From contig JBHIAH010000007.1 in NCBI GenBank assembly GCA_046758505.1, forward strand, positions 1 to 64,000: 64,000 nt of DNA, written 5' to 3'. This document shows positions 24,681 to 33,794 of this stretch, one piece after another (within the stretch, counting starts at the first letter, position 1; each line of letters begins with the position of its first letter). This DNA is from Candidatus Methylomirabilales bacterium (lineage in GTDB: Bacteria > Methylomirabilota > Methylomirabilia > Methylomirabilales > CSP1-5). Position numbers and translations under genes: made by a program. Under the pieces are notes generated by a model, which worked only from the letters and a program-made list of their open reading frames with translations, was not told where the DNA came from and did no database searches.

Positions 24681-25427
24681 TTAGAGGCGCTGGAAGAGCC
24701 ACGCGGGGGTGAAGCGGAGGGCAAAGGTGGACAGCAGGGTGAAGTAATCGCTGAGGAGCAGGACCCCCACGAGGATGAGAAAGACGCCGCTTGTGCGACT
24801 CACCCAAGGGAGGAGACGCTTGAACCGGGTGAAGAAGGCGAGGAACTGTCCGAAGAGCAACGCGCTGAGCAAGAAGGGGATGGCGAGGCCGGCGGCGTAA
24901 GCTGTCAGGAGGAGAATGCCTTGGCTGGCGTCCTGGGACGTACTCGCCATGACCAGAATCGACCCCAGGATGGGCCCGACACAGGGAATCCATCCGGCGG
25001 CAAAGGTCACCCCCACCAGGAAGGCCCCCACGTAGCCGCCGGGGTGACCCGTCAACTCCAGATGCCTCTCCCGCATGAGGAAGGGGAGGGGCAGCCACCC
25101 CGCGATGTGGAGGCCAAAGAGGATAATCAGGGCCCCGCCGACCTTGCGTATGGTGAGCTGATAATCAAACAGGAGCTGCCCGAGGGCCGTCGCCGACGCC
25201 CCGAAGGCGATGAAGATGACCGAGAAGCCGGCAATGAACGTCACGGCCCGCAAGAGGAGGTGGCGCCGATTCCTGGAATCGGCCACCGTGCCCTGAATCT
25301 CGTCCACGGAGAGACCACCCACGAAGGCAAGATACGACGGGATGAGGGGAAAGACACAGGGGGAAAGGAAGGAGAGCACACCCGCCCCCATGGCCACCAG
25401 GATCGATACCTGCGCCGCCGCAGTCAT
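24681..25427 (-). CDS. ccdA: Cytochrome c biogenesis / thiol-disulfide transporter CcdA
   Basis: SFLSPCVFPLIPSY and GWIPCVGPILG with the two conserved Cys; 6 TM. Confidence 0.92.
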   Translation of the reverse strand: MTAAAQVSILVAMGAGVLSFLSPCVFPLIPSYLAFVGGLSVDEIQGTVADSRNRRHLLLRAVTFIAGFSVIFIAFGASATALGQLLFDYQLTIRKVGGALIILFGLHIAGWLPLPFLMRERHLELTGHPGGYVGAFLVGVTFAAGWIPCVGPILGSILVMASTSQDASQGILLLTAYAAGLAIPFLLSALLFGQFLAFFTRFKRLLPWVSRTSGVFLILVGVLLLSDYFTLLSTFALRFTPAWLFQRL

Positions 25428-25567
25428 CTCGCCGAAACCGCCCCCTTCTCTCCCGCCTCCGTCCGGCTCCCCTCTTTCGATCCAAGCCATCCATCATGGT
25501 AATGGTCGCCGCGGTCTTTTGCAACCCTTGTCCCTCTCCCCGACGCGTGGCGTCCGGCGGCTCGGCC

Positions 25568-26091: not shown

Positions 26092-26907
26092 TCAGGACTG
26101 GGCCGTCTGGAAAAAGACGCGGGCGCACTGGAAGATCTCGTCCCACCCCACATCCGAGACGAGGGCGTAGGTGGTCTTCCCGCTTTCCCAGAGGAGGATC
26201 TGTTGCCCTTGATACTCGCCGCTCAGAAAGCTCCGCCCGTCTCGCCGGATCTCTGTCAGGCCGCTGAAATCCGCCCCATACCGGGGAAAGGCGAAGAGGG
26301 AAATGATGTTCCGTCCCTTTTCATACACGATATATCCCGCCCGCCGACCGCTCAGGCGCGCGACCCGTGCCCCCAGGAGCTGGATCCCCGATGTGCTGTA
26401 ATCGGGAACCCGGACGGAATACCCGAGTCGCCCCCGAACCCAGTGGGCGACCTGCTTGATGTTCTCACTGGGAAGCTCGGCAGGATTTTCCCGGAGGGCG
26501 AATTTCATGTGCTCCGACACCAGATCCGTCACCAGGGGGTGAAACCCGGGTCGGGAAGAAGGCTGCGCGACCAGATACCCGAGGGTCCCGCCGACGACGA
26601 AGAGAAGGATCGAAGCGGCCAACGCCAGGGACCAGGCCCGCCGGCCCCAGACGGCCGGGCGCGCAGGTCTCCCCTCGCTCTCCTCCGACTCCGCGATGGC
26701 AGACCTGAGCCTCTCCACGAGATGCGGCGGAACGGGTTCTCGAGCGACCGCCGCCCTGAGCCCCTCCCGGAATGCCCGTTCTCCTTCAACGACACTCCGA
26801 CAGGAGGGACATGCGTCAAGATGCCCCTCCACCTCGAGCATCTTCGAGGGCTCGAGCTCTCCGTCGCAATAGGCTTGAAGGTAGCGTGCAAATTCGTGAG
26901 CCGTCAT
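26092..26907 (-). CDS. Transmembrane anti-sigma factor with zf-HC2 (ZAS) domain
   Basis: YCDGEL...HLDACPSC, one TM helix, periplasmic domain; ATGA overlap with the sigma gene. Confidence 0.88.
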   Translation of the reverse strand: MTAHEFARYLQAYCDGELEPSKMLEVEGHLDACPSCRSVVEGERAFREGLRAAVAREPVPPHLVERLRSAIAESEESEGRPARPAVWGRRAWSLALAASILLFVVGGTLGYLVAQPSSRPGFHPLVTDLVSEHMKFALRENPAELPSENIKQVAHWVRGRLGYSVRVPDYSTSGIQLLGARVARLSGRRAGYIVYEKGRNIISLFAFPRYGADFSGLTEIRRDGRSFLSGEYQGQQILLWESGKTTYALVSDVGWDEIFQCARVFFQTAQS

Positions 26908-27455
26908 TGGTCCTCCTGGGAATTTCCTCCGCCCGTCGAGTACTCCTTCAGGGCGCCCCGCAGCGTCTGCCGACCCCGGTACAGCCGCGACATCACCGTC
27001 CCAATGGGACACCGGCAGATCTCCGCAATCTCCCGATAGCTACATCCCTCGAGGTCCGCCAGAACCACTGCCACCCGAAGCTTGGGGGGCAGGGCCTCGA
27101 TGGCCCGTTGGATGTCCTCCCCCGCCAGTCGATGGAAGAGATCGATCTCTGGGTCCCCGGGGACCACGCTGCCGACCCCTGCCTCCCGGTACACCCGCTC
27201 TTCATCAAAGTCGACCACGGGACGGGACGACTGGCGGATCCGATTGACAAAGAGACTATGCAAGATGGCAAAGAGCCAGGCCCGACAGTTGGTTCCCGGC
27301 TGGAACTGGTGGAAGAAGCGGTAGGCCCGGAGAAATGTCTCCTGGAACAGATCCTCCGCTTCGGTCTTATTCCGGGTCAGCCGGAGGGCCCCATTGTATA
27401 TACTGTTCATATGGACCAGGGCGGCTTCTTCAAATTCCTGCCGCTTCTGGTCCAT
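26904..27455 (-). CDS. ECF sigma factor (SigH/SigR-like)
   Basis: AEDLFQETFLRAYRFFHQFQPGTNCRAWLF region 2; SYREIAEICRCPIGTVMSRLYRGR region 4. Confidence 0.92.
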   Translation of the reverse strand: MDQKRQEFEEAALVHMNSIYNGALRLTRNKTEAEDLFQETFLRAYRFFHQFQPGTNCRAWLFAILHSLFVNRIRQSSRPVVDFDEERVYREAGVGSVVPGDPEIDLFHRLAGEDIQRAIEALPPKLRVAVVLADLEGCSYREIAEICRCPIGTVMSRLYRGRQTLRGALKEYSTGGGNSQEDQ

Positions 27456-27623
27456 CCCCTCAGGCCCCACGGAACCCTCCCCAGTGGAGGGGGTCCGGAG
27501 CCCACTGCCCGTTCCAAGAAGAAAACACCCCTCCCCCCGAAATATTCCCTCCGCATCCGGCTCCGGGCTTTTATCTTCTGCGAATTGCCCGCCGCTGTCA
27601 ACCGTGAAAGACCCCTCCCCCAG

Positions 27624-27649: not shown

Positions 27650-27830
27650 TTCCTTACCTTAGAAGGGGATGCGAGGGCCGGAGGGCCCCGGAGTTTTGAG
27701 GGAATTTTTCTCTCCCCCGCCTGTTCTTCCAACGAGAGGAGAAGACCCCCGGAAGGGGTGTGTGGCGCGAGAGGGTCGTGGTGGGACGAGGCGGTTCCTG
27801 GGAAGAGGCCGTGGAGGGGGTTTGACCATC

Positions 27831-28880
27831 ATGAAGCGGACCCGAAGACAGACAATCATCACCTCGGTGCTGGGTCTCCTGCTCGCCACGGCCGGGGTCA
27901 GCGAGGCGCACCACGTGGTGCTCCAGAGCGGGCCGTTCCAGGCGATCATCCTCACCATTGTTGTACATCCGAAAAACGGCAAGCGCCTCTACCTGGGGTC
28001 CTTCGGGCGCGGGGTCTTCCGGACCACGGACGGGGGGAAGGTGTGGATCACCTCCAATAGCGGTTTGGAAAACCTGGAGGTGCAATCTCTCGCCATCGAT
28101 CCGCTTAGGCCGTCCACCCTCTATGCGGGCACGGACGCCGGGGTGTTCAAGACCACGAACGGCGGAGAGCGATGGGAGCTGGCCAGTACGGACGTCGCCG
28201 CGCGCAATATTCGGGCCCTGGCCATCGACCCCGCCCACCGTACGACGCTCTACGCCGGGACCGACGCCGGGGTCATGAAAAGCACGGACGGAGGGGCATC
28301 CTGGCGGGCGAGGAGCGACGGGCTCACCGCACCCGATGTCCGGGCCCTGGCCATCGACCCGAACACCCCCCACCGCCTGTATGCCGCGGCTTTCGGCGGG
28401 GTCTTTCTGAGCACGGATGGCGGGGGGCACTGGAGTGCCGTCACCCAGGGCATGGGGAACGAAAACATCCGGACCCTGATCCTCGATCCCCACAACTCCT
28501 CCACCCTCTATGCGGGTACGGCGACCCATGGGGTCTTCAAGAGCGAGGACGGTGGCACCTCGTGGCGCCCGGCTTCCCAGGGCATGGGAGAGGTGAGTGT
28601 CATGGCGCTCGCCATGTCCCCCTCCACCTCGACGCTCTACGTGGGGACGAGAGAGGGGCTATTCAAGAGCACGGATCGCGCGACCACCTGGGCACAGGTG
28701 GAACCCGATTCTTTCAGCCTTTCCATTACCTCGCTGGCCGCAGACCCTCGTCCGCCCGGAGTCCTTTACGTGGGGACGGGGGGACTCTTCTTCACAAGCG
28801 TGGATGGGGGGCGCAACTGGTCCGGGGTCCAGTGGGTGATTCATCCGGATCTTCCCTTTCAACATGTGGTCGAAAAGTAG
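27831..28880 (+). CDS. Secreted BNR/Asp-box beta-propeller protein (YCF48/VPS10-like)
   Basis: Signal peptide; seven repeats of LAIDP..P.TLYAGT..GVFKSTDGG.SW. Confidence 0.88.
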   Translation: MKRTRRQTIITSVLGLLLATAGVSEAHHVVLQSGPFQAIILTIVVHPKNGKRLYLGSFGRGVFRTTDGGKVWITSNSGLENLEVQSLAIDPLRPSTLYAGTDAGVFKTTNGGERWELASTDVAARNIRALAIDPAHRTTLYAGTDAGVMKSTDGGASWRARSDGLTAPDVRALAIDPNTPHRLYAAAFGGVFLSTDGGGHWSAVTQGMGNENIRTLILDPHNSSTLYAGTATHGVFKSEDGGTSWRPASQGMGEVSVMALAMSPSTSTLYVGTREGLFKSTDRATTWAQVEPDSFSLSITSLAADPRPPGVLYVGTGGLFFTSVDGGRNWSGVQWVIHPDLPFQHVVEK

Positions 28881-28895
28881 AAAGGAGGTGGCTTG

Positions 28896-29423
28896 ATGAA
28901 GGGATCGACCGTCCACCGGGTAGGTCTGGCCCTGGGAGCGCTTGCCGTTACGCTCCTCGTCTCGCACCCGAGTCCCGCCCAGCAGAAGAAGAAACAGATC
29001 AAGCCCGGGGTCTACGCCATGACGCTCCAGAAGGGGGACTCGATCGACGCGTCCATCGCCCGGGGCAAGAAGCTGTTTAACCAGATCGGCTGTGCCGGCT
29101 GTCACCCCCGGGGGGGAACCATCGGGGGGACCGCCTTCGACGTAGCAGGGAACCCGTTTCCGATCCCCATCCCCAAACTCCGGGGCTCGGCGCTCCACTT
29201 TCCTCGGATCGGGATGGGACCGGCCCGGGCCGTCCTGACCCTCGGGCAACTCAACGACCTTTGAAACACCGTCTTTCTTGGCCGTGAGCCAATCGATCCC
29301 AATTCCCAGGAGTGGGTAGACCTGTATGCATACGTCGCCTCTCTCACCCCGCAAGCCTACAAGGCGATGAAGGCGTGGGAGGCCAAGCGGCTGCAGTTGG
29401 AGAAGAAGGTTTTCGGAAAATAG
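28896..29423 (+). CDS. Monoheme cytochrome c of SoxA/TsdA-like type, probable selenoprotein
   Basis: Signal peptide, RGKKLF..IGCAGCH; in-frame TGA at 29262-29264 in TLGQLNDL-U-NTVFLGREPIDPNSQEWVDLYAYVASL; 52 further codons to TAG; hairpin TTGGC-CGTGA-GCCAA 13 nt after the TGA. Confidence 0.8.
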
Positions 29424-29473
29424 GGCGATGGCGGAACGTTCGGTGTGCCGTGCGAGACGAGAGGGGGTGAGGA

Positions 29474-30265
29474 ATGTCCTGGAGGGTATGGCCCCTGCTG
29501 GGCCTACTCGGTCTCATCGCGCTGATGACAACGTCCACGGGGAGTGCGGCTGACGAGGGGGACGTGAAGGTTGGGGAAGCCGTGTACAAAGAGATCTGCT
29601 TTGCCTGTCACGGGCTGACAGGTGGAGGGAATGGACCGAGCGCGCCCAATTTCAAACCCAGGCCGCAGGTCTTCGCCAATCCGGAGTACATGGCGCGGAT
29701 GCAACCCCAGTATATGTTCTGGGTGGTCAAATACGGCAAGCTCAAGGTCCTACAAAAGGAGATCCCCGGCTTCCCCCTGGGAGAGCCCCGATTCGTGGTG
29801 GACATGCCAGCGTTTGGCGACGTCCTCGAAGAGGACCAGATCCGTCGCCTCATCCAGATGGAGCATCTCTTGGTTGAAGGAAAAGCCATTCCCACGGACA
29901 TCCGCGAGATTTACGACGGGGCCTGCGCCACCTGTCATGGGCCGAACGGCCGGGGGGATGGAGAGCGAGCGGTCTCGCAGCCGGCCCCAAAGAGCTTTGT
30001 CAGCGAGATCCAGCCTCCACCGGCCAATTATACCAACGCCAAGCTCATGCAGCGCTTTAACGACGATTACCGGTTCACCCTGATCACGAAGGGGCGGCTG
30101 GCCGCAACCACGGAGGCCGGCTACACGACCATGCCCCCCTTCGGAGACGAACTGAGTGACCACGAAATCTGGAGCGTCATCCGGTACGTCCGGGAGACCT
30201 TTGTGAATCGGAAGGCGGCCCACGCGGCGAAGGGCCCGAAATCCCTTCGCCAATCGGCCCGCTAG
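29474..30265 (+). CDS. Diheme c-type cytochrome
   Basis: Signal peptide; CFACH and CATCH, each followed by MP(A/P)FG distal Met. Confidence 0.88.
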   Translation: MSWRVWPLLGLLGLIALMTTSTGSAADEGDVKVGEAVYKEICFACHGLTGGGNGPSAPNFKPRPQVFANPEYMARMQPQYMFWVVKYGKLKVLQKEIPGFPLGEPRFVVDMPAFGDVLEEDQIRRLIQMEHLLVEGKAIPTDIREIYDGACATCHGPNGRGDGERAVSQPAPKSFVSEIQPPPANYTNAKLMQRFNDDYRFTLITKGRLAATTEAGYTTMPPFGDELSDHEIWSVIRYVRETFVNRKAAHAAKGPKSLRQSAR

Positions 30266-30286
30266 ATGAGAACGACCGGGATCAGG

Positions 30287-30466
30287 ATGGATGCGGAAAC
30301 GTACTATTGTCCCCTGTGCCAGCGCGTCGTCGAAGAACACCTGCGGCCCATCCATGAGGTCGCCGAAGAATGGGTCATCGCGCACATCAAGGCGGCGCAC
30401 CCGGATTGGATCGAATCGAACGGCGCCTGCCCCACCTGCGTCCAGTTCTTCAGGAGCCGGCTGTGA
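30287..30466 (+). CDS. Small Zn-finger-like protein
   Basis: CPLC...H...IKAAHPDW..SNGACPTC; fills the gap in the operon. Confidence 0.65.
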   Translation: MDAETYYCPLCQRVVEEHLRPIHEVAEEWVIAHIKAAHPDWIESNGACPTCVQFFRSRL

Positions 30467-30578
30467 CTGCCGCCCGGTGCAGTCCCACCTTAGAAGCATT
30501 GGAGGTGATGCGGTGGTACGGTAAGGGGACGTTTTGGGACTTCGGCAGTGCTGTGCGCTTTGCGTAAGGAGGGAGAAA

Positions 30579-31157
30579 ATGCGTTGGAGTGTCGTCTGTA
30601 CGATGGCGCTGGCGGGCCTGCTGGCGTTCGCCAGCCCGCCAGTGGAGGCCGCGTATCACGGGTCCAATCCCTGTGCCGCGAACCCGTGCAATCCGTGTGC
30701 GGCCAAGGCCATGAATCCGTGTGCCGCCAATCCGTGTAATCCCTGTGCGGCGAAGAATCCGTGTGCCGCGAACCCGTGCAATCCGTGTGCGGCCAAGGGA
30801 GTTGCCCGAGGCCCCATCCCGGTGAGGACGGTGTGGGGTCAGGTGGTGTCGGCCTCTCCCCGATCCCTCGCGGTCAAGACGGATGGCAGGACGCTGAACC
30901 TGCAATTGACTCGGCGGACCGAGATCAAGATGGCCAGCCAGGGGATGGAGAGAAAGACCCTGCGCGATATCCGGCCCGGCGCCAGGGTTGCCGTTTCGTT
31001 CCTCGACAACAATGGCAGCCGGCGGGCCGCCTATGTCTACCTGACCCGAGCGGCGGCCAATCCGTGTGCCGCCAATCCGTGTAATCCCTGTGCGGCGAAG
31101 AATCCGTGTGCCGGAAGGTCGATGAACCCGTGTAACCCTTGCGGCGCGAGGAGGTAG
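30579..31157 (+). CDS. Secreted protein with 15 Asn-Pro-Cys repeats flanking a beta-rich (DUF5666-like) domain
   Basis: Signal peptide ending VEA; 9 NPC before and 6 after an approx. 85 aa domain; RBS AAGGAGG. Confidence 0.85.
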   Translation: MRWSVVCTMALAGLLAFASPPVEAAYHGSNPCAANPCNPCAAKAMNPCAANPCNPCAAKNPCAANPCNPCAAKGVARGPIPVRTVWGQVVSASPRSLAVKTDGRTLNLQLTRRTEIKMASQGMERKTLRDIRPGARVAVSFLDNNGSRRAAYVYLTRAAANPCAANPCNPCAAKNPCAGRSMNPCNPCGARR

Positions 31158-31198: not shown

Positions 31199-31227
31199 CG
31201 AACTTCACGCGAAAGGAGGTGAATGCG

Positions 31228-31632
31228 ATGCGAGTGCGGTCAATACGGTTAACCCTTGGGGTCCTGGCAACTGCTCTGGCCGTGGTCTTTGGAACTGCCG
31301 CGACCGGCCTAGCAGGTTCGGTTCCTCACAATCCATGCGCGGCCAAGGCGTTGAATCCGTGTGCGGCGAAGACGTTGAATCCGTGTGCGGCGAAGACGCT
31401 CAACCCGTGCGCCGCCAAGACCCTCAATCCGTGTGCGGCGAAGACGTTGAATCCGTGTGCGGCGAAGACGCTCAACCCGTGCGCCGCCAAGACCCTCAAT
31501 CCGTGTGCGGCGAAGACGTTGAATCCGTGTGCGGCGAAGGTCTTGAACCCGTGCTGCGCCAAGAGACTGAGCGCACAGCAGGCAAAGAACATCAACCCGT
31601 GCGCGGCCAAGAGTCCGACCTGCGGCAGATAG
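31228..31632 (+). CDS. Secreted NPCAAKxL-repeat protein
   Basis: Signal peptide then 11 NPC units; RBS AAGGAGGT. Confidence 0.85.
   Translation: MRVRSIRLTLGVLATALAVVFGTAATGLAGSVPHNPCAAKALNPCAAKTLNPCAAKTLNPCAAKTLNPCAAKTLNPCAAKTLNPCAAKTLNPCAAKTLNPCAAKVLNPCCAKRLSAQQAKNINPCAAKSPTCGR
31330..31569 (+). repeat. 10 x 24-bp coding tandem repeat (NPCAAKTL)
   Basis: Unit consensus AATCCGTGTGCGGCGAAGACGTTG; units 2-4 are identical to 5-7 (72-bp higher-order duplication). Confidence 0.95.
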
Positions 31633-31699: not shown

Positions 31700-32953
31700 A
31701 TGAGGCAATCTTGGAAAGGCATCCTGCTCGTCGGCACATGTCTCTGCCTGGTCTCGATGCTGCCGCTCGCCTGCTTTGCGCAGGGGGACCGCGCCGGAGA
31801 GCGCTGGACCGAGACAGCCCAGCTCGCCTTTCTCCAGAGGCACTGGCAGACCCCGATACCGCTGCAGGGCCCTCCTCCCACCACGTACTCGCAGCTCGAG
31901 GCTTCCCTCCAGCCGGAGAGCTGCGGCGTCTGCCACCCCCAGCAGTACCGGGACTGGAAGAGTACCCTCCACGCCCGGAGCATGGGGCCGGGCGTCCGGG
32001 GTCAGACCCAGGCCTTCGTCGGGCGGGATCCGGCCACAGCCCTCCTCTGCTACAGCTGTCATGCCCCCCTGGCGGAGCAGGCCGAGAAGCTCCAGGATCA
32101 GGGGACGTTCCTCGACAATCCCCAATTTAACCCCGATCTTCACCGCAAGGGGCTGACCTGTGCCGGATGTCACGTGCGGAACCACGAGCGGTACGGCCCC
32201 CCGTACCGGGAAGGAAGCCCGGCTGCCTCCCGGCCCCGGGAAGCACTCCCCCACCGCGGGGCCACGACGTCTCCGGCCTTCGAGCGGGCCGAGTTCTGTC
32301 GAAGCTGCCATCAGTTCGGGGAAGACGGCTATGCACTGAACGGAAAGTTCCTCGAGAATACGTACAACGAATGGAAAGCGGGACCGTACGCCCGGGCAGG
32401 GATTCAATGCCAGACATGCCACATGCCGGATCGGCGACACCTGTGGCGAGGGATCCACGACCCAGAACAGGTGAAGGGGGGGGTGACCATCCGCCTCACC
32501 ACGGGGAAGCCGCGATACCGCCCCGGTGAAACCGCCGAGGCGGTATTGGTCATCGAAAACAGTGGAGTCGGCCACTACTTCCCGACATACGTCACCCCCA
32601 AGGTCTTCGTCAGGGCAGAGCTGCTGGATCAGCGGGGAAAGGCGGTGAGGAACAGCCTCGAGGAGGCGGTGATCGGTCGCGAGGTCACCCTCGATTTGAG
32701 CCGGGAGCTCTACGACACCCGGATCCCGCCCCACCAGCGCTTCACCTTCCGGTACCACCGACCGATCAGGGGGAAGGGGTGGAGACTCCAGGTGCAGGTG
32801 ACGGTCCACCCGGATCATTTCTACGAGCGGTTCTTTACCTCGGTGCTGGAGGGCAGCACCTCTCCCGAAGGGCGAACGTTGCTCCAGGAGGCACTCGAGC
32901 GCACCCGGCGGTCCACCTTTTCGATCTTCTCGCGGAAGATCCCGATTTCGTGA
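31700..32953 (+). CDS. Pentaheme c-type cytochrome with C-terminal beta domain
   Basis: Signal peptide; CGVCH, CYSCH, CAGCH, CRSCH, CQTCH; WKSTLHARS; NSGVGHYFPT. Confidence 0.9.
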   Translation: MRQSWKGILLVGTCLCLVSMLPLACFAQGDRAGERWTETAQLAFLQRHWQTPIPLQGPPPTTYSQLEASLQPESCGVCHPQQYRDWKSTLHARSMGPGVRGQTQAFVGRDPATALLCYSCHAPLAEQAEKLQDQGTFLDNPQFNPDLHRKGLTCAGCHVRNHERYGPPYREGSPAASRPREALPHRGATTSPAFERAEFCRSCHQFGEDGYALNGKFLENTYNEWKAGPYARAGIQCQTCHMPDRRHLWRGIHDPEQVKGGVTIRLTTGKPRYRPGETAEAVLVIENSGVGHYFPTYVTPKVFVRAELLDQRGKAVRNSLEEAVIGREVTLDLSRELYDTRIPPHQRFTFRYHRPIRGKGWRLQVQVTVHPDHFYERFFTSVLEGSTSPEGRTLLQEALERTRRSTFSIFSRKIPIS

Positions 32954-32957
32954 GCGC

Positions 32958-33794
32958 ATGCTGATGTCCGGACTCGCGATCGCATTCGGATTCCTGCTCG
33001 CCGCCTCCCCCGTCCCATGTCCCGCGGACATGGTCCTCATTCCGGCGGGGCCGTTCATCATGGGGAGCGACCGGGCCGAGCGGGACTTCGGCTACCAGAT
33101 TGGCGGGGAACCCGCCCGCCGGTACCGCTGGTTTGATCACTGGGAGCTCCCCCGGCACACGGTGTCCCTCCCGGCCACCTGCATACAGAAGTTCCTGGTG
33201 ACGAATGAGGCGTACCGACGGTTCATCGAGGCGACCGGCCACCGCGTCCCCTCTATCTCCCGCGAGGCGTACCGACGGCAAGGCTACCTGGTACACCCGT
33301 ACACGGAGGTGGAGCGGTTCCTCTGGCACAGGGACAGATACCCCAAAGGGACCGGACAGCACCCGGTCGTCCTCGTCAGTCAGGCGGACGCGGGCGCCTA
33401 TTGCCGGTGGAGGTGGGCAGGGCGGATCTGCCGCCTCCCCAGCGAGCGGGAGTGGGAGAAGGGGGCCAGGGGGACCGACGGCCGCTATTTCCCCTGGGGA
33501 GACACGTGGCACCCGGAGTATCTGAACGCCGGCTATCGCATTGGGTATACGACGCCGGTCGGAAACTACCCGCAAGGGCAAAGCCCGTATGGACTCATGG
33601 ACGCTGCGGGCAACGTCTTCGAGTGGACACGGACCGAGTTCAGCCCGGGGAAGGCGGTCCTGAAAGGGTGCTCCTGGGACGATCAGGGGGGGATCTGCCG
33701 AGCCGCCGCCCGCCACGGGCGGGTCCGGGACGCGCGCCACATCCTCTTCGGCTTTCGGTGTGTCTGCGACGTGAAGACAGATAATGGGAGATGA
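32958..33794 (+). CDS. Formylglycine-generating enzyme (FGE/SUMF1) domain protein
   Basis: IPAGPFIMGS, HPVVLVS, RLPSEREWEKGARG, GNVFEW, FGFRC. Confidence 0.9.
   Translation: MLMSGLAIAFGFLLAASPVPCPADMVLIPAGPFIMGSDRAERDFGYQIGGEPARRYRWFDHWELPRHTVSLPATCIQKFLVTNEAYRRFIEATGHRVPSISREAYRRQGYLVHPYTEVERFLWHRDRYPKGTGQHPVVLVSQADAGAYCRWRWAGRICRLPSEREWEKGARGTDGRYFPWGDTWHPEYLNAGYRIGYTTPVGNYPQGQSPYGLMDAAGNVFEWTRTEFSPGKAVLKGCSWDDQGGICRAAARHGRVRDARHILFGFRCVCDVKTDNGR

Follow-up and report, generated by a model that had tools for sequence, protein, structure and literature searches.

The window analyzed here is a stretch of 64,000 nucleotides from the genome of a Candidatus Methylomirabilales bacterium (contig JBHIAH010000007.1), and all positions are counted from its first letter. 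On the plus strand, from an ATG to a TAG at 28896-29423, lies a gene for a monoheme c-type cytochrome of the SoxA/TsdA type, 175 residues long, in which an in-frame TGA almost certainly directs the insertion of selenocysteine (Sec). Sequence comparison supports the view that Sec occupies the heme-ligand column of the SoxA/TsdA domain in this protein. Taken as a whole, the protein is probably a His/selenolate heme cytochrome with Sec at the ligand and catalytic position. Judged from its homologs, the gene belongs to a genuine, widespread and unannotated selenoprotein family, the same design recurring in several phyla.

An In-Frame TGA in a Cytochrome Gene

The features of the gene itself are all on the plus strand. 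A Shine-Dalgarno-like AGGAGG, read directly from the sequence, is located at 28883-28888, 7 nucleotides 5' of the ATG. Residues 1-29 (28896-28982) form a probable signal peptide, recognized by eye from a hydrophobic core and the ending ..SPA-QQ; the N-termini of homologs are variable and hydrophobic and terminate in A-Q-Q/K. The heme-attachment motif CAGCH, comprising C66, C69 and the proximal ligand H70, is encoded at 29091-29105 and is unchanged in all 61 Sec and Cys forms of the alignment. The TGA itself, assigned to Sec (U123) from conservation and alignment, stands at 29262-29264 and falls in the distal heme-ligand column. An original prediction made from the letters of the window had described a 123-residue open reading frame stopping at this TGA. 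The site of the stop is correct but the length is not, as 123 residues are obtained from a TTG at 28893 and the frame from the ATG at 28896 has 122 codons. Direct reading agrees with its further statement that 52 more codons stay open, up to the TAG at 29421-29423, and the resulting 175-residue read-through product contains a single CxxCH. The Pfam family Cytochrom_C (PF00034) covers residues 54-150 at profile positions 1-89 of 90. Since this match extends across the TGA, the domain is complete only when the codon is read through.

Public annotation stops short of the codon. A word-indexed search of 5.8 billion proteins returned at least 120 clusters of the cytochrome among 180 matches, those listed being 103-133 residues long and covering no more than 70% of the query, and many of the listed clusters carry names such as 'hypothetical' or 'c-type cytochrome'. 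All 22 of the database proteins that were aligned terminate at the residue just before the TGA (...NDL or ...NDM). NCBIfam holds no model for a Sec cytochrome of this kind, and the window protein has no match to its SoxA model TIGR04484 at E up to 0.1.

Conservation of the TGA was counted in 39 related loci, 12 from 201 genomes of the phylum and 27 from a scan of one genome per species. The codon is TGA in 38 of the 38 loci that reach the site, the remaining contig ending before it; without the unpublished G100 locus (L023) the count is 37 of 37. The 12 phylum loci are strong matches (E 5e-59 or better, the source genome G000 included), each with exactly one internal TGA and running to about residue 172. 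The other eight places found in the 201 genomes comprise one short N-terminal fragment and seven weak matches (E ~1e-4) to other cytochromes. After the TGA the 38 loci continue with N-T-V/I-F-L-G-R-E-P-x-D-P-x-S-Q. Among the 36 loci of sufficient length there are 28 distinct DNA versions, in which the mean pairwise differences at the first, second and third positions of codons 13-29 after the TGA are 0.17, 0.09 and 0.57, a pattern indicating that the tail is evolving as protein under purifying selection.

Sequencing error and pseudogene formation were considered as explanations and are ruled out by these 28 versions, every one of which carries the TGA. Contigs from four DNA runs (a single study, which may be that of the source sample) have only TGA at the codon, with no variant. 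In runs X3 and X4 the assembly graph is broken at 29250-29305, where depth rises several-fold exactly at the segment holding the TGA and the hairpin described below; the loose end there is a homolog from another organism with the same segment. This segment is near-identical among co-occurring species and may fragment assemblies of the cytochrome gene.

Selenocysteine Machinery

The source genome (149 contigs, 96.8% complete) encodes selB (333 bits), selA (607 bits) and selD (407 bits), all above curated cut-offs, together with a tRNA-Sec (80 bits) with anticodon TCA. The machinery that the original prediction wished to see confirmed is therefore present in full, and selA was found in all five other carrier genomes tested. 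The selD gene of the genome (G000:C6:7795-8721, L008) contains one in-frame TGA of its own, and judging by this codon the selenophosphate synthetase is probably itself a selenoprotein. A genome-wide reassignment of TGA was rejected, as TGA terminates 9 of 15 neighboring genes and serves as second stop in three homologs.

It is highly improbable that the TGA is a true stop, leaving a truncated cytochrome of 122 residues and a downstream frame that is a remnant or a separately translated peptide. All public gene calls do end at the TGA, the hairpin of the window is weak on its own, and the sequencing runs listed for the locus include no RNA run. Set against these points are the coding-type conservation of the tail in 28 distinct sequences from several phyla, the completion of the cytochrome domain by the tail, with the whole predicted as one confident fold (predicted local distance difference test, pLDDT, 94.5), the Cys-form relatives that are continuous through the site, and the Sec machinery in all carriers tested. 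The observations that the original prediction had named as counting against Sec, among them an unconserved tail, a residue such as Trp at the column, a genome without Sec machinery and reads with TGC or TGT, were all looked for and none was made.

A SECIS-Like Hairpin Downstream of the TGA

Insertion of Sec in bacteria is guided by a hairpin, the selenocysteine insertion sequence (SECIS). A SECIS-like hairpin was delimited at 29275-29296 (plus strand) by comparison with relatives. It has an apical stem of 29278-29282 paired with 29288-29292, a CGUGA loop and a lower stem weakened by a C-C mismatch. Its upper part is the TTGGC-CGTGA-GCCAA hairpin that had been reported 13 nucleotides 3' of the TGA, now located at 29278-29292. 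The model derived from the 28 distinct sequences is a helix of eight pairs with a loop of five nucleotides (CGUGA) and one bulged U. In it 95.5% of 224 cells are paired, as against 14-48% when the alignment is slid into other registers. One pair, 18-30, is C-G in 14 sequences and U-A in the other 14, with no mismatches. Its two members are the third positions of a Leu codon and a Pro codon, so that the double change is not forced by the amino acids. Third-position variation falls to 0.32 in the first 12 codons after the TGA, where the hairpin lies, which fits an added constraint at the RNA level.

Orthologs with TGT or TGC at the site provide a further comparison. In the same operon context, these read FTVHPP or FIGNDP in place of FLGREP, and their DNA lacks the hairpin; FLGREP is invariant in all Sec forms. 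Its invariance is thus tied to the TGA and not to the function of the protein. The hairpins of homologs fold into the proposed shape with z of -2.1 and -1.2.

Several observations on the RNA weigh on the other side. The hairpin of the window is no more stable than shuffled sequence (z 0.05 to 0.5) and carries the C-C mismatch in its lower stem; the lone co-varying pair may be due in part to a GC-driven codon preference that relatives have in common; and Rfam, scanned with 29150-29450 at an E limit of 10, gave three chance-level matches and no SECIS family. As the window hairpin is thermodynamically unremarkable, its support comes from comparison with relatives and not from folding energy. On that comparison, the gene has the SECIS hairpin of a bacterial selenoprotein gene, and SelB is predicted to bind it.

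Relationship to SoxA and TsdA

Full-length relatives were obtained by searching 1.84 billion representative proteins exhaustively with a profile, which recovered 383 relatives at E 1e-3 or better, among them forms spanning the TGA site. An earlier word-indexed search with residues 100-175, aimed at a full-length Cys form, had returned truncated forms only. When 36 distant full-length relatives were aligned with four Sec forms, Cys stood at the Sec column in 35 of them. The column in homologs, which the original prediction had singled out as decisive, accordingly holds TGA in close relatives and, in distant ones, Cys with a single Gly and no Trp.

Membership in the SoxA/TsdA superfamily is clearest for the Cys relatives. 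The Pfam family PF21342 'SoxA/TsdA, cytochrome c domain' is matched by 36 of the 40 aligned proteins, and the more distant Cys relatives exceed its cut-off with scores of up to 90 bits. Scores of the Sec forms are sub-threshold (given below), and their membership rests on profile-profile and fold evidence. Aligned with hhalign, a profile of 26 Sec forms matches one of 28 Cys forms with a probability of 99.9% (E 1e-33, 102 columns) and places U on the invariant Cys. Against the PDB, a mixed Sec/Cys profile finds SoxA (1h31_A, E 8e-15), a peroxidase (3o5c, E 2e-12) and TsdA (4wq7, E 1e-11); a profile of the C-terminal half alone gave no matches in the same database. The heme motif aligns to C49/C52/H53 of TsdA and C76/C79/H80 of SoxA, and the Sec/Cys column to C96 of TsdA, C114 and C222 of SoxA, and a Met of peroxidase 3o5c. 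The three cysteines are presumably the distal, catalytic, heme-ligating residues of their domains, and the Met is likewise taken here to be a distal ligand.

The predicted structure also resembles these domains. A first AlphaFold model, built on 26 close sequences, had a pLDDT of 67.7 and weak structural matches only, and was replaced by a model of the mature protein built on 61 sequences (pLDDT 94.5; predicted template modeling score, pTM, 0.88). Among Foldseek candidates the best match is the SoxA N-terminal domain (Z 10.7, root-mean-square deviation [rmsd] 1.7 Å over 85 residues, chain 53-143), with the TsdA N-terminal domain also found (Z 9.8, rmsd 2.9 Å, 94 residues, chain about 17-127). 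These are followed by TsdBA (its TsdA part), hydrazine synthase gamma and, at Z about 9, the C-terminal domains of diheme peroxidases; by fold alone, peroxidase domains and His/Cys domains therefore cannot be told apart. Within this limit, the modeled fold fits His/Cys heme domains best. The structure prediction proposed earlier has thus given one confident domain that matches the His/Cys domains of SoxA and TsdA, and the link to these proteins made in the original prediction is borne out by the profile-profile match, by the column on C96, C114 and C222 and by the fold.

The protein is distinct from the established classes. TsdA proper has two heme domains, the second with Lys/Met ligation; the window protein has one CxxCH in 175 residues. 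No conserved Met of the kind expected of a class I His/Met cytochrome is found, all 61 sequences having Sec or Cys at the column. The Cys relatives score 34-96 bits on TIGR04484, all under its 110-bit cut-off.

Probable Heme Ligation and Possible Catalysis

The Sec probably ligates the heme iron in at least the resting state. In the 61-sequence alignment of Sec and Cys forms, which leaves out the Gly-bearing relative P0171, the only invariant columns of Met, His, Lys, Cys or Tyr are C66, C69, H70 and the Sec/Cys column. The observations that speak against selenolate ligation concern both the family and the ligand. On PF21342 the window protein scores 12.8 bits against a cut-off of 27, and the other four Sec forms 15.6-23.2 bits; P0171, with Gly at the column, indicates that not every member of the superfamily needs the ligand; and H101, which is invariant in the Sec clade, could ligate the heme in some state. 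In MccSep/ExtKL, moreover, Sec is reported to be essential, yet the heme ligand is Cys (PMC13510729).

This last precedent raises an alternative, in which Sec is inserted as a free catalytic selenol beside the heme, as in MccSep, and the heme is five-coordinate or ligated by His101. Such an arrangement is considered unlikely, notwithstanding the invariance of H101 in the 26 Sec forms, its presence in the nearest Cys orthologs, and the reported dissociation of the TsdA Cys ligand during turnover (PMC9562282). H101 is not kept in the wider family, which offers no other invariant Met, His, Lys or Tyr column. In addition, the Sec column is aligned residue for residue to the ligating Cys of three solved His/Cys heme domains, and the fold match is to exactly those domains.

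With selenolate as ligand, the following scheme can be proposed. The cytochrome would be a secreted monoheme c-type member of the SoxA/TsdA superfamily, its UGA decoded by SelB and tRNA-Sec under the guidance of the short downstream hairpin. The selenolate would serve as sixth (distal) ligand of a low-spin, low-potential heme, in place of the catalytic Cys nucleophile. On the model of TsdA and SoxAX, this ligand would detach from the iron to attack a substrate containing sulfur or selenium, and two electrons would pass through the heme to the co-encoded diheme cytochrome. TsdA catalysis is reported to proceed via an S-thiosulfonate on the heme-ligating Cys (PMC4423706). Finally, the Se-bound adduct could be resolved by a thiol, plausibly a Cys of the NPC-repeat tails or proteins encoded nearby (see Organization of the Gene Cluster), which would act as carrier arms in the manner of SoxY. 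In the Sox system the intermediates are carried by SoxY. Carrier-arm chemistry of this kind, argued from analogy, is a tentative suggestion that may well prove wrong.

A simpler role would be that of a plain electron carrier, in which Sec or Cys ligation merely tunes the potential very low and no substrate chemistry takes place at the chalcogen. The single heme, the small size, the position of the gene between two other cytochrome genes and the lack of an identified substrate-handling enzyme in the cluster would all suit a carrier. This reading is nevertheless judged improbable, in view of SoxA and TsdA, the relatives of known structure that have this ligand and are reported to be enzymes using it as nucleophile, of the Cys-rich NPC carriers fused or adjacent to the cytochrome, and of the Arg and His residues invariant in the Sec clade, which fall within the segment aligned to TsdA just before Cys96. 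Selenocysteine is also costly, and in known selenoproteins it is nearly always found at a reactive site, which weighs against a role confined to electron transfer.

Comparison with Known Heme and Selenium Systems

The N-terminal heme domain of TsdA (4wq7) resembles the window cytochrome in fold, in the alignment of the Sec column to C96, in its periplasmic location and in gene order, since a diheme cytochrome gene is adjacent here as TsdB is to TsdA. TsdB is the diheme partner of TsdA. The window protein differs in having one heme domain rather than two, Sec rather than Cys, and a longer GGTIGG...PIPIP insert between heme motif and ligand; it lies below the Pfam and NCBIfam cut-offs, and its operon includes a propeller protein and NPC-repeat proteins. 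SoxA of SoxAX (1h31_A, 2c1d_A, 3oa8_A) is the best structural match, with the Sec column on C114 and C222, and the NPC tails may correspond to the Cys-bearing carrier arm of SoxY. The window protein differs from SoxA in being monoheme and in carrying Sec rather than Cys or Cys-persulfide. No SoxX-type partner was identified at the locus, where the neighbor is instead a diheme cytochrome, and neither SoxYZ nor SoxB was seen in the cluster, the view being confined to the cluster with no genome-wide search for sox genes. The C-terminal, electron-transfer domain of bacterial diheme cytochrome c peroxidases (3o5c, 1iqc) gives the best direct sequence match of the Sec family (E 6e-4) and a structural match at Z about 9; it has Met at the Sec column, and the peroxidatic N-terminal heme domain is lacking in the window protein.

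Two selenium-containing heme systems can also be compared. MccSep/ExtKL of Geobacter is likewise a Sec-containing c-type cytochrome with a chalcogen-ligated heme and acts on sulfur or selenium compounds; it is the only cytochrome selenoenzyme known to have been characterized, with Sec catalytic and Cys ligating the heme (PMC13510729). A distant relative is encoded at 31700-32953 in the same cluster as the window cytochrome. MccSep, however, has five hemes, with Cys ligating the active heme and Sec nearby, whereas the window protein has one heme, and its Sec stands in the very column of the ligand; the two share neither fold nor family. The Sec-ligated P450 of subfamily M, described in a 2024 preprint (PMC11703216), is likewise a natural protein in which TGA encodes the axial heme ligand normally supplied as a thiolate, and it was recognized from database entries cut short and from a SECIS 3' of the codon. 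It differs in having a b-type heme, the P450 fold, a cytoplasmic location and Sec as the only protein ligand, as opposed to a covalent c-type heme, a periplasmic location and a putative His/Sec six-coordinate site.

The original prediction knew of no characterized natural family with a heme-selenolate site. Among heme proteins overall there is now the P450 of that preprint, the only case in which a native Sec-ligated heme has been reported; the novelty lies with c-type and SoxA-type cytochromes and not with heme proteins as a whole. The cytochromes listed in selenoproteome reviews are multiheme ones only, namely ExtKL, GSU2204 and the octaheme tetrathionate-reductase family (PMC13188914; PMC9312934). 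No Sec form of SoxA/TsdA or of a monoheme cytochrome c was found in a full-text literature search, the scope of which excluded most subscription journals and supplements.

Cys-ligated c-type hemes, as in SoxA and TsdA, form a small enzyme class, and neither their very low potentials nor the chemistry of their ligand switching is fully understood yet. A natural selenium version would have a built-in spectroscopic and anomalous-scattering probe, and would amount to a natural experiment on how the heavier chalcogen affects ligand lability, potential and S-S/Se-S exchange. Current annotation does not reveal the family, and the selenoproteins of these uncultured phyla are undercounted as a result. 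It can be speculated, though with considerable doubt, that the site is the first natural selenolate-ligated c-type heme and the catalytic center of an undescribed periplasmic pathway in which the heme-bound Sec forms Se-S (or Se-Se) adducts with an inorganic compound of sulfur or selenium and passes them to the cysteines of NPC-repeat arms, resembling SoxAX/SoxYZ but with selenium and a new carrier. If true, such a pathway would be widespread in Methylomirabilota/Rokubacteria, 'Deltaproteobacteria', Binatia, Nitrospinota, Tectomicrobia and others.

Distribution and Evolution

The records of the 27 loci from the species-level scan name Methylomirabilota/Rokuibacteriota, Deltaproteobacteria, Syntrophobacteraceae, Binatia, Nitrospinota, Tectomicrobia, Acidiferrales and Anaerolineae. 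The maximum-likelihood tree built from the 61 sequences groups the 26 Sec forms and three Cys forms in one clade (support 99/95), and two of these Cys forms, P0122 and P0124, nest inside it. The Sec/Cys label changes at least twice on this tree, which has a midpoint root only, so that the direction of change is not fixed. Sequences labeled Acidobacteriota, Myxococcota and Binatota lie within 0.3 substitutions per site of one another. In the window's own genus, the cytochrome gene was found in one of 14 genomes searched, and one other gave a weak match (E 4.6e-4) to another cytochrome. Near-identical versions across phyla, combined with rarity in its own genus, make the cluster look mobile, and these patterns suggest that the operon moves horizontally.

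Organization of the Gene Cluster

Gene context was surveyed at 24 loci with 1.5-3 kb of flanking sequence. Immediately upstream of the cytochrome gene is a gene for a BNR/Ycf48-like beta-propeller (Pfam; 27669-28880, plus strand), which adjoins the cytochrome in 22 of the 24 loci; from its sequence, its start is likely the ATG at 27831 (MKRTRRQ...). Downstream lies a diheme c-type cytochrome gene (Pfam; 29474-30265, plus strand), present in 22 of 24 Sec-form loci and three of four Cys-form loci. The two loci without the propeller also lack the diheme gene; one of these has no downstream flank, and the other has the flank but neither gene. Among solved chains, the diheme protein is closest to the cytochrome partner of a hydroxylamine oxidoreductase (HAO)-like complex of Kuenenia (6h5l_B, E 5e-12). 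It is the probable redox partner of the Sec cytochrome. Further Sec codons were considered in two diheme homologs (L021, L022) and rejected, the apparent in-frame stops being an artifact of coordinate extension or a frameshift.

Two proteins with Cys-rich repeats follow. The first (30534-31157, plus strand) has a signal peptide and NPC(N/A)xxK repeats flanking a small central domain, and its relatives occur near the cytochrome in 14 of 24 Sec-form loci and three of four Cys-form loci. The second (31219-31632, plus strand) consists of (NPCAAKTL)n, and its lone Pfam match, Cornifin, is compositional. The NPCAAK and NPCNPCAAK repeats belong to no Pfam or NCBIfam family. In 12 of 26 Sec forms (L034, L039, L040, L042-L045, L047, L049, L050, L055 and L021) the cytochrome itself carries the same repeats as a C-terminal fusion, and Cys orthologs have them fused as well. 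The NPC-repeat proteins, which are secreted, could be thiol carriers or metal(loid)-binding arms of a new type. The conservation of an operon with these family-less proteins suggests that bacteria of groundwater, soil and vents have a periplasmic redox process yet to be studied.

The cluster continues with a multiheme c-type cytochrome of 417 residues (Pfam; 31700-32953, plus strand), found in six of 24 loci and without an in-frame TGA. Its score on NF040886, the model of the ExtKL/MccSep (seleno)protein, is 53 bits where 250 are required, and its match to a UshA-like (seleno)protein model is sub-threshold too. Next is a protein with an FGE-sulfatase domain (Pfam E 2e-42; 32958-33794, plus strand), encoded in two of 24 Sec-form loci and three of four Cys-form loci and thus recurring beside both Sec and Cys versions (L036, L047, L067-L069). 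Any connection with the Cys-rich repeat proteins is purely speculative. A reading frame of 66 residues at 30266-30466, beginning at the end of the diheme gene, has two zinc-ribbon-like CxxC pairs; it has no relatives in the 24 other loci and may be no gene. Just upstream of the cluster, on the minus strand, are an extracytoplasmic function (ECF) sigma factor with a zf-HC2 anti-sigma factor (26092-27470) and, slightly further, a CcdA/DsbD-type thiol-reductant transporter (24681-25490). A similar sigma/anti-sigma pair adjoins the cytochrome gene in one other locus (L054).

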